From the IMG/VR virus record IMGVR_UViG_2737471860_000003: 34,370 bases of DNA; one strand, written 5' to 3'. Positions 6,001-9,000 of the stretch are shown piece after piece (the stretch's first letter is position 1; every line of letters starts with the position of its first letter). Origin of the DNA: a virus (taxonomy: Duplodnaviria; Heunggongvirae; Uroviricota; Caudoviricetes). A program made the position numbers.

Positions 6001-9000
6001 TGTATAAAGATTTTCTATCCTTATCTTTTATCATCTGTGCTCGTTTGCTTTAACGATTGCTAGATGCCTAATTAAAGTCGATTATATTTAATCGACTCAT
6101 GAATCAGTGCCTTACCCATAACATAAAGCTGATCTTGCGACTTCTCATCAATGTACCATTTCTCATAGGCGGGGTTATCCGAAAGAACAGCTAGTTTGTT
6201 GCCTTGCATTTGTAGACGTTTAACATGGAAAGTCTTACCGTAAACGAAAGAGTAAACTCCATCAGTCTGGAAGTGGCGAACGGAAATGTCGACAAACAAT
6301 CGATCCCCGGAAACAAGAGTTGGGGACATACTATCTCCATTTACCGTCATAACTTTTATATCATTCTGAGAACGGTTTCCGAAAAGAGAACGGGCATGTT
6401 CAGTTGTGAACTCAATGGCGTAGAGCACATCAACATAGTCTGAAAGCATATAGGTCCCAGGTCCTGCGCTAACGCTAAGATCCAAAACTTCTATCCTGTA
6501 TACATCGGGCTTTGTTGGATTGGGGATGCTTGCCATTTCCTTACATTCCTCTCTATCTCCAACACCATATTCTAGATATGAAGCTGATACTCCAAGAGCC
6601 AACGCAAGTTTACTCATGACAGAGACACGTGGCTTCGCTGCGCCGATTGTGTATCGACGAGCCATTTCATATGTAACGCCCACAAGACTTTTGAGTTGAG
6701 TGACAGAGATTCCTTTGATTGTCATCAATTCGTTTAGTCTCTTGGCGAAATCTGGATACTTCTGTTCTTCTACCATAGGTAGAAGATTACTCACATCGCA
6801 CGCGCTAGTCATTTCTATTTTAAGTAGTTGCAATTTGCTATTTTAAGTAGCATCATCCCTCTGAATTTCAGAGGAGAAAGGTATGTCATCTCAAAACTAC
6901 ACAGAGAAAGCAGTAAAGGCTGCGGGAAAATCTTTATCTGAAGTAGCCCGTCGCTTTGGTTTTAAGTCCACTCAATCCGTCGCCAATTGGGTAATTAACA
7001 ATCAAGTCCCGTCAGAACGGGTTTTACAACTTTGTGAGTTGGGAAACTGGTCCGTGACCCCTCATGAACTGCGTCCTGATATTTACCCCAATCCAAATGA
7101 TGGATTACCTGAGTGCTATTCAAAAGTTAGCGGTTCAACTGCGTAAACGTAACCACAGAAACGAGGAATTAACCGTGGGTAAAGAACCTGAATGGAAAGT
7201 TGATAAGCAACCAGCATGGCTGGTGGCAGCAATACGAAGAACGATTGCTGATTTACCTCATGGCTATGAGGAAGCAGCGGAAATTCTTGGTTTGTATAAA
7301 TCTGATGATATCACCCCAGCGAAAGATCAATTGCATAACAGACTGCGTAGCGGTGGGGATCAAATTTTTCCACTTGAGTGGGCCATGGTTTTACAGGATG
7401 CCAGTGGTACCAAGCATGTAACGGATGCGATAGCGCGTCGTAGTAATGGGGTGTTTGTGCCGCTGGTGGACATTGATGACATTGACAATGGTGACATTAA
7501 TCAGCGGCTGATGGAGTCAATAGAATGGATTGGCAAGCATTCCCAGTACTTACGCAAGGCAACTGCTGATGGAGTTATTGACCGGGCTGAGCGTGAGCAA
7601 ATCGAAGAGAACAGCTACCAAGTAATGGCGAAGTGGCAGGAGCATTTAACACTGTTATTTCGTGTTTTTTGTGCGCCGGAAAAGAGTGACGCCCGCGAGT
7701 GTGCAGCTCCGGGCGTCGTGGCGTTTTGTGTCCGTGGAGAAACTAACGCATGAACAGTTTAACGGCAAATAACCGTTTGTCGCAACAGCTGGTGGTCAGT
7801 GTCGCTGCACACCTGTTGTTACGGCATGAATGCAGATTACCAAATCACCTGGCTGTAAGTAACCACAGAGAACTTTACCTGACTGTGGGGGGCGAGTTGT
7901 GCAGGAACTTAACCGCTGGTTTCGTGACGGAAGAGGACTTTATGTTCATGTTATTCGTTGGGAGCCAGAAACACAGCGCGTTATCTATCTTCGCAAAGAC
8001 TACCCGCATGAGTGCTTTAGTCCTTTGTGGAAATTCAGGCGTGATTTTGTTGAGTGTGAAGGACCACCAGCACATTGATTCTGCCATTCCGGGACGTTAC
8101 ACTGTTCAGGCACCTTATAAAGCGGGTGCCGGGATTGGCGTCCTGAAATTGATTACTGAGCATAACCGCGCTCATGCGGTTTTTTCGTGTCATGAGCATT
8201 GCTACGCCCAAATTATGGTGGGGCGTACAGGGCCGACTTCGGTCGGGCCGGGTTCGGTAGTCTCCGGTAACGCCAACCCTGTACGTCTCACCACCTCTGT
8301 GATTGGCGTCCCATGTGGTGAGTTTTCTAAAAAACTGACTACCGGGGCTGTCACCATGACTACTCTCCCAACCCTCTCTCAACCTGAAATTGCCATCGTT
8401 GATGGTCAGGCTGTTACTTCTTCTTTGGCTGTTGCTGACTTCTTCTCTAAACGTCATGACGATGTTCTGAAAAAGATCCGCATTTTGGATTGTTCTCCAG
8501 AGTTTTGTGCCCGCAATTTTGCGGAGACATCAATTTTGGTACGCCAGCCCAACGGCGGTACTCGCAAACTTCCTTGCTATCAAATAACCCGCGACGGCTT
8601 TGCGTTTCTTGCTATGGGGTTCACGGGGAAACGTGCTGCCCAGTTCAAAGAGGCATACATCAATGCCTTTAACCAGATGGAGAAACAGCTTTCAAAGCCC
8701 TCTGTACCGAGCGACGTTGCACATAACGCCAGCGTTCTCTATTCCTACATTTCATCAATTCATCAGGTCTGGTTGCAGCAGCTTTATCCCATGCTGGAAA
8801 AAGCTGAATCACCGCTGGCTGTAAGTCTGTATGACCGAATTAACGATGCGGCATTTCTTGCCCGTCTTATTCATTCGTCGCTGAACTCTTCAGAGGTAAG
8901 GGGGCGCAAATGATCCGGAATATTTTCAAACGATTTACCAATCAGACTTTCCGTTGTCCTCGCCCGGGTCAGTGGTACACCACGCCTGCAGGGCATGTTC

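Follow-up and report, generated by a model that had tools for sequence, protein, structure and literature searches.

In this study we analysed positions 7750 to 8913 of IMG/VR record IMGVR_UViG_2737471860_000003, a 34,370-nucleotide stretch of a Caudoviricetes genome that we call the window, and found that two known regulatory RNAs, isrK and C4, lie in tandem inside a long open reading frame (ORF) leading into the gene for a Rha-family regulator. All features are on the plus strand unless stated otherwise. The long, 'eta-like' frame (7750-8913, 387 codons) comprises an Ash region followed by Rha and was defined from the ORF list, the sequence and Pfam. An initial annotation of this DNA had stated that the Rha frame stays open back to an ATG at 7750 and that this ATG overlaps the stop of the upstream gene as ATGA; both statements are borne out, the stop codon being the TGA at 7751-7753, and the upstream gene encodes a YmfL-family, cII(CP76)-like protein. 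At the other end of the frame a nested short gene begins at the internal ATG 8356 and encodes a Rha-family regulatory protein of 185 aa (8356-8913; PF09669, 96 bits, E 2e-27; TIGR02681, 90.8 bits). As had also been described, the Rha domain starts just after this ATG, the Pfam match running from residue 21 of the short gene, or over aa 223-312 of the long ORF. A third gene, with a GTG start and 59 codons for a DUF4222 protein, lies at 7899-8078 in the +2 frame relative to the long ORF (PF13973, 51.1 bits versus a cutoff of 27, E 9.5e-14), and the Prokaryotic Genome Annotation Pipeline (PGAP) annotates it in two near-identical E. coli prophages (L003 and L001).

The whole window was scanned against Rfam at gathering thresholds, which gave exactly two matches, isrK and C4, both full length and both on the plus strand. 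The isrK or seqA-like leader RNA (RF01394, 8110-8186) scored 59.3 bits versus a gathering score of 50. It is built from hairpin 1 (8110-8129), hairpin 2 (8130-8145) with the motif b1 (UUGGCGU, 8135-8141) in or beside its loop, a linker that carries the site a1 (GAUUACUG, 8151-8158) and an intrinsic terminator identified by a terminator scan (stem 8164-8181, T6 8180-8185). The terminator-like hairpin with six T residues that had been noted earlier is this 3' end of isrK; it exists, but not at ~8169-8190, the coordinates of the initial annotation being shifted by 2-5 nt. A sub-threshold match to c4-a1b1 (RF03163, 21.6 bits versus 46.7) overlaps isrK at 8097-8149. A riboswitch or other Rfam family was considered as well and rejected, as besides RF03163, isrK and C4 no match was found in 7600-8500 at E <= 1. 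A scan of the window for tRNA and tmRNA genes gave none, so the structured stretch is not a tRNA-like gene.

Directly upstream of isrK lies a conserved predicted sigma-70 promoter (8076-8103), with a putative -35 box TTGATT at 8076-8081, a 17-bp spacer and a putative -10 box TACACT at 8098-8103, from which a +1 near 8110 is predicted. Of 52 distinct promoter variants essentially all, diverged ones included, keep the layout TTGAnn-17-TAnnnT at a distance of 6-7 nt before isrK position 1. A consensus promoter scan had missed it because only 8 of the 12 positions match, whereas the tool needs 9. The start site of isrK has been mapped in Salmonella, and only there (PMC4825925).

Downstream of the terminator follows the C4 or CI-type antisense RNA (RF01695, 8211-8298), which scored 82.3 bits versus a gathering score of 45 (E 7e-15) and covers model positions 1-87 of 87. 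The segment folds with a minimum free energy (MFE) of -47.7 kcal/mol (z = -6.0; 0 of 200 shuffles as stable), and the MFE fold is the Rfam structure, a three-way junction: a 17-bp outer stem (8216-8232 with 8277-8293), hairpin 1 with a UUCG loop (8233-8246), hairpin 2 (8247-8268) with the specificity loop a' (8253-8262), and the junction b' (ACGCCAA, 8270-8276). Two elements of the initial annotation are contained in this structure. Its 9-bp perfect inverted repeat exists and is the inner part of the outer stem, with arms at 8224-8232 (CGTACAGGG) and 8277-8285 (CCCTGTACG), although the positions given for it (8221-8229 and 8279-8287) were wrong; its CCGAC-UUCG-GUCGG hairpin is C4 hairpin 1 and was described correctly. 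A 3' ACCACC tail is visible in the sequence after the outer stem. The c4 RNAs of P1 and P7 are processed by RNase P.

The C4 RNA finds complementary sites on both of its sides. Eight nucleotides of the hairpin-2 loop (CGGUAGUC, 8255-8262) are the exact complement of GACUACCG at 8337-8344, with 8/8 Watson-Crick pairs. This core of the target a2 lies 12-19 nt before the Rha ATG, and a2 as a whole (8337-8347, GACUACCG plus a G.U extension) runs into the GGGG Shine-Dalgarno sequence of Rha. The junction b' is complementary to UUGGCGU, which occurs at b2 (8303-8309) and again at b1 in isrK hairpin 2. An alternative hairpin (8287-8322; 8287-8294 paired with 8315-8322) displays b2 in its loop, and it excludes the base of the C4 outer stem, with which it shares the C4 3' strand. 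Since the b2 hairpin uses that strand, the precursor and the processed RNA must fold differently. The sites a1 (8151-8158) and a2 (8337-8344) differ by C-to-U changes, and a1 pairs with a' via G.U wobbles in the window and in several alleles; as a2 is fully Watson-Crick paired, C4 should be bound less tightly by the isrK site than by the one at the start of Rha. One more stretch that is fully complementary to a' (AGACTACC, 7997-8004, plus strand) occurs within DUF4222, ahead of the isrK promoter, and may have arisen by chance.

To follow these pairings in other genomes, related loci were gathered from IMG/VR by a nucleotide pattern (C4 hairpin 2 plus junction), a search that is unbiased as to reading frames, and 79 distinct loci were aligned from isrK to the downstream start. 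Hairpin 2 is fixed by the search pattern and hence uninformative for covariation. The loci are related, and neither the covariation counts nor the stop and in-frame counts given below are corrected for kinship. Over the whole structure 91.9% of the alignment cells were paired, versus 36-46% with the partner slid, and 36 pairs showed double changes. Changes on both sides occurred in 12/17 pairs of the C4 outer stem (96.8% of cells paired), in all 5 pairs of C4 hairpin 1 (100%) and in all 7 pairs of isrK hairpin 1 (84.6%). The same holds for the b2 hairpin (7/8 pairs; 94.1% paired versus 35-60% in slid controls) and for the antisense pairings themselves: 7/10 pairs between a' and a2 (92-93% paired) and 8/8 pairs between a1 and a' (~95%). 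We found 26 distinct a' sequences, each with a matching a1 and a2, and the b pairings (b', b1 and b2) are invariant among enteric alleles. A three-way co-variation was also seen between 8216-8222, 8287-8293 and 8316-8322.

Based on these data we consider it highly probable that 8110-8346 encodes an isrK RNA and a C4 RNA that follow the antisense logic of these families. A structured RNA between the cII-like gene and Rha had been one of two explanations offered initially, and with two Rfam families and covariation in both stems and antisense-target pairings it is strongly supported for 8110-8346. Strong RNA structure had been ascribed to all of the 600 bp upstream of Rha; it is present in 8110-8322 but does not extend across the entire stretch, the first 360 bp (7750-8109) being without RNA structure and consisting of a spacer, the DUF4222 gene and the isrK promoter. 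Covariance across related loci had been suggested as a check, and stems as well as antisense-target pairings indeed covary heavily.

It could be argued that the same helices form a purely cis-acting attenuator or riboswitch-like leader of Rha that yields no trans-acting RNA. Such a leader would account for the terminator hairpin and U-run and for the mutually exclusive C4 outer stem and b2 hairpin, and the Gifsy-1 locus likewise has alternative cis structures, A and B (PMC4825925). However, the products of the matched families are stable trans-acting RNAs (C4, CI, IsrK, STnc1160), the cassette has a conserved predicted promoter of its own, and a' covaries three ways with the separated a1 and a2, as is typical of an antisense specificity determinant. 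Cis switching moreover belongs to the known mechanism and is not an alternative to it. We therefore regard a cis-only leader as very improbable. Two minus-strand ORFs (8035-8457 and 8202-8357) are mirror images of the RNA helices; lacking the support of any family, they were not accepted as genes.

The second question concerns the reading frame that crosses these RNAs. Over isrK and C4 no codon periodicity was seen in any frame, with variable columns by codon position of 17/18/16 and 16/18/16, and the ratio of synonymous to nonsynonymous changes in the long frame is ~0.2 (12/56 and 17/68). The Rha gene served as a control and shows a clear coding signature (9/3/20; synonymous/nonsynonymous 21/11). 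Flat counts over the RNAs versus 9/3/20 in Rha indicate that conservation of isrK and C4 follows base pairing and not codons, which answers the codon-periodicity check that had been proposed for this region. Upstream of the RNAs, 7899-8078 shows variable columns of 6/7/17 and a ratio of 16/13 when read in the DUF4222 frame, versus 7/17/6 and 2/26 when read in the frame of the long ORF.

This bears directly on the Pfam family Phage_ASH (PF10554), which matches aa 117-212 of the long ORF (43.2 bits versus a cutoff of 26, E 6e-11). The initial annotation had found no recognisable domain in the 200 codons before Rha; this does not hold, given the Phage_ASH match and the DUF4222 ORF in another frame (7899-8078). 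The same codons had been called Cys/His/Ser-rich, and here only a mild enrichment remains (His 5.4%, Cys 3.0%, Ser 8.4%). Phage_ASH corresponds to the translation of isrK, C4 and their targets, both in the window and in phage P4. In P4, Rfam places isrK at 8615-8692 and C4 at 8420-8507 (minus strand), both inside the ORF 8168-8812, which scores 82 bits on Phage_ASH exactly over isrK and C4. The Pfam 'Ash' domain is simply a translation of isrK plus C4.

One might object that residues 1-202 form a genuine folded N-terminal 'Ash' domain that aids Rha function, the RNA-like features being incidental. The Phage_ASH score is above its cutoff, homologues are named 'ash family protein' in databases, and a published analysis of Shiga toxin (Stx) phages treats Ash and Rha as domain proteins. 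Against this, substitutions track base pairing and not codons, the match maps exactly onto isrK and C4 here and in P4, and 7899-8078 carries its coding signal in a different frame. The residues corresponding to the a' loop are hypervariable and change together with non-coding targets, and the supposed domain precedes unrelated genes (Rha, a 120-aa Rha-like protein, a 77-aa protein, Kil-like proteins of 64 aa). An AlphaFold2 (AF2) model gave no fold over residues 1-230, with predicted local distance difference test (pLDDT) values of 25-38 versus 52-72 for Rha, and no secondary structure over residues 101-213, where alignment coverage is best. The model speaks less strongly than these values suggest: its alignment, seeded from a protein search with the Ash segment that returned 39 mostly partial proteins, is shallow (19 sequences), and hence the AF2 result is only supportive. 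The Phage_ASH region thus shows neither codon-level constraint nor a predicted fold, and a folded Ash domain appears quite improbable to us. As the Ash residues are without codon-level constraint, what Pfam calls a domain is better understood as the view that a single reading frame gives of an RNA cassette.

Despite the lack of codon constraint the long frame is probably not accidental and appears to be kept open. From isrK +1 to the downstream ATG it is free of stops in 45 of 50 alleles, versus 11 and 1 for the other two frames. Among distinct variant codons new stops amounted to 0/195 in the long frame and to 18/372 in the others (p = 6e-4, kinship uncorrected), so that even hypervariable segments never yield a stop in this frame. 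An ATG at the 5' edge of C4 (8215-8217), equivalent to the first AUG of Gifsy-1 orf45, is in frame with the Rha ATG over 141 nt without a stop, and in 67 of 80 unique alleles the counterpart of this ATG leads to the downstream start in frame and without a stop. The frame has been preserved by two independent 3-nt insertions and, in a diverged variant, by a 6-nt deletion within the 7754-7898 spacer. The long frame opens with an ATG that shares bases with a stop codon (ATGA) in 31 of the 41 distinct contexts found upstream, and many of these stops close long, unrelated upstream ORFs. The protein explanation offered initially is thus right insofar as the frame avoids stops and is often in frame with the downstream start, but it lacks codon constraint over the RNAs. 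The two initial readings, protein and RNA, are compatible, and each is partly right.

The frame might nevertheless be an accident of RNA constraints, the region being non-coding RNA plus DUF4222 and Rha being made only from ATG 8356 or 8215. The absence of codon periodicity, the low synonymous ratio over isrK and C4 and the missing AF2 fold agree with this, as does the fact that G+C-rich structured RNA is poor in stop triplets; in Gifsy-1 the cassette works although orf45 stands apart and the long frame is interrupted, and the annotated start varies between 7750 in mEp460 and 7948 in PGAP. What makes an accident unlikely in our judgement are the stop-free alleles compared with the other two frames, the 0/195 versus 18/372 new stops, the frame-preserving insertions and deletion, and the ATGA junctions in unrelated upstream contexts. 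In addition, the homologous eta ORF of P4 is reported, in PMC10111431, to be translated and to be needed for read-through.

If the frame is kept, its amino-acid sequence does not seem to be the reason, and we slightly favour the view that it serves as a track for ribosomes. Several points weigh against this view. As the loci are related, the stop-avoidance and in-frame counts are not independent and the p-value is indicative only. Over 180 nt the long frame shares its DNA with DUF4222, which is read in a different frame, an awkward arrangement if translation from 7750 is to be efficient, and the Shine-Dalgarno sequence of the 7750 start, GGAG, lies rather far away (~11 nt upstream). Gifsy-1 has its leader ORF and its effector gene as two ORFs that meet at an AUGA junction, and there the long frame is interrupted; such a cassette can therefore work without an in-frame long ORF. 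Finally, a start at 8110, processing of C4, the involvement of Rho and translation from 7750 are all suggested by homology.

The comparison with known systems makes it likely that the stretch is an antisense-RNA 'immunity' cassette of the P4/P1 type, placed between ymfL and Rha of a lambdoid prophage. The RNA families, their tandem arrangement and the nested-ORF logic have already been published. In P4, according to PMC10111431 (summarising Forti 1999; Sabbattini 1995), the CI RNA and seqA lie inside eta, whose truncated product is Kil; full-length Eta comes solely from an upstream late promoter, with its translation coupled to that of the preceding gene, and this translation prevents termination. 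The same source describes that the Rfam C4 and isrK models detect relatives of CI and seqA. The order of elements is alike in P4 and in the window: an internal constitutive promoter (predicted here), a seqA-like leader that matches Rfam isrK, a CI/C4 RNA and a downstream target. In both, a long ORF that is coupled to the preceding gene begins ahead of the internal promoter, spans both RNAs, matches Phage_ASH and ends in frame as a nested short gene. This nested gene is a 185-aa Rha-family regulator in the window, whereas P4 has the 65-aa Kil. The cassette in the window resides in a lambdoid prophage that has a LexA-like CI repressor, and it would therefore add to another immunity system instead of being the only one. 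In addition, the long ORF of the window crosses the DUF4222 gene in another frame, and translation and Rho-dependent termination, in contrast to P4, are predictions.

Gifsy-1 offers a second parallel. Its isrK and C4 matches stand in tandem upstream of a regulator of the Bro network, with a leader ATG at isrK +106/107, and mid-isrK is complementary to the 3' part of the C4 region, with alternative structures. Short IsrK, acting in trans, opens the orf45 start on a read-through transcript (Hershko-Shalev et al. 2016, PMC4825925); orf45 overlies the stable RNA STnc1160, and its translation is coupled to that of the regulator AnrP (PMC4825925). There the 45-aa leader ORF stops at an AUGA junction with anrP, whereas in the window the leader ATG continues in frame into Rha. 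The Gifsy-1 regulator, AnrP, is of the ORF6N type and not a Rha protein, and the Gifsy-1 locus lies beside antQ in the late region, unlike the cassette in the window, which stands between the cII-like gene and the replication genes of the early operon. The Rha short gene would be the analogue of P4 kil and of Gifsy-1 anrP.

The third parallel is the immI region (c4 - icd - ant) of P1 and P7, in which c4 represses ant via complementary sites (PMC7313666). As in the window, an Rfam C4 RNA has a' and b' complementary to upstream a1/b1 and downstream a2/b2, with the downstream site at a ribosome-binding site, and it controls a regulator of the antirepressor type. In P1 the start that is blocked belongs to icd, a separate coupling gene; the upstream element in the window differs in that it also matches isrK and has its own terminator. 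We know of no description of a long ORF across c4 in P1. A c4 and isrK pair upstream of a BRO-family gene is found in APSE phages (PMC7313666).

By analogy to P1 c4, P4 CI and Gifsy-1 IsrK, a possible mechanism can be outlined. In a lysogen, transcripts from the internal promoter would mostly stop at the isrK terminator, and those that read through would be processed to C4. C4 would then pair with a2 and b2, occlude the ribosome-binding site of Rha and block its translation; the untranslated RNA would terminate prematurely before the replication genes (start 9131), leaving Rha and the replication genes silent. Short IsrK, which carries a1 and b1, may compete for the same pairings and could relieve the block. 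Upon induction, early-promoter transcripts would bring ribosomes from ymfL, via the ATGA at 7750, across isrK, C4 and the targets, as suggested by P4 eta/kil and by the frame statistics. Their transit might defeat the terminator as well as the antisense block, and its product would be a Rha with an N-terminal extension. The terminator scan found no terminator-like site between ymfL and isrK. We tentatively propose that the Ash frame may have been selected only to stay open as a ribosome track that overrides a second, RNA-based layer of immunity, and that a1, a' and a2, with at least 26 alleles, might act as an exchangeable barcode of hetero-immunity. If this were true, a Pfam family present in thousands of genomes would not be a protein domain in the usual sense.

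The cassette is wide-spread. Of 5426 complete E. coli genomes, 3011 match 7700-8950 in part or in full, and 517 contain at least 80% of it. Near-identical copies are present in mEp460, cdtI, Stx2a phages and ST64B, and the stretch also occurs in many Stx-converting phages. Public names for it are inconsistent ('Rha', 'ash family protein', 'peptidase', 'hypothetical'). Among the annotations compared (L001, L002, L003 and P0001-P0039) the start is set at 7750 (mEp460) or at 7948 (PGAP), and L001, L002 and L003 carry no ncRNA feature for isrK or C4. A recent survey of regulatory regions in Stx phages lists the Ash domain as of unknown function. It is less appreciated that the 'Ash domain' of Rha/Ash proteins is a translation of isrK and C4, and our result is mainly a practical correction for a cassette that is often mis-annotated as a protein. 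The isrK/C4 reading also gives a testable model in which Rha-type regulators and the adjacent replication genes would be off in lysogens and released on induction, which bears on the induction of Shiga-toxin phages. The codon and stop statistics, in turn, might provide a clean example of a frame that is conserved for transit and not for its product.

The surroundings of the cassette are mosaic. The segment 7754-8109 behaves as a separate module: it shows 98-100% identity where isrK and C4 show only 65-77%, and other loci in which isrK and C4 are identical have unrelated sequence in its place. The long frame runs open across DUF4222 in every variant seen that has this gene (the window type, the L039 type and L082). 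Sharp joints were found at ~8109/8110 and just after 8356, and the upstream module, isrK-C4 and the downstream gene reassort independently; one and the same a' allele precedes a 181-aa Rha, a 120-aa Rha-like protein and a 77-aa protein of no known family. Unrelated downstream genes (8356-8370 in the window, and L003-L122) all start with M-(A/T)-T-x-P (ATGGCTAC...CC), a common start which suggests that the first codons are part of the regulatory cassette at the nucleotide level. Downstream of Rha, an ORF at 8910-9134 ends in an ATGA junction with a replication-type gene (9131-9134). The sequence of this junction (ggaggtgcagcATGAgtatgg) is also the start of the long frame upstream of the L076 cassette, and its occurrence at both junctions points to recombination at coupled gene junctions. 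On the minus strand, a 361-aa ORF (4762-5847) with a Walker-type KGGVGKT motif, ParA/Soj-like by eye, adjoins the repressor region. Some viral contigs carry two tandem isrK-C4 cassettes in one unbroken frame (L074:1306-2361, L017:9151-11607), and in L017 an open frame of 819 codons of protein-unlike sequence leads into the cassette. In L006 (8785-10269) the downstream ATG is out of frame by one base, and the long frame runs for 495 codons into what appears to be a tyrosine-recombinase-like protein.

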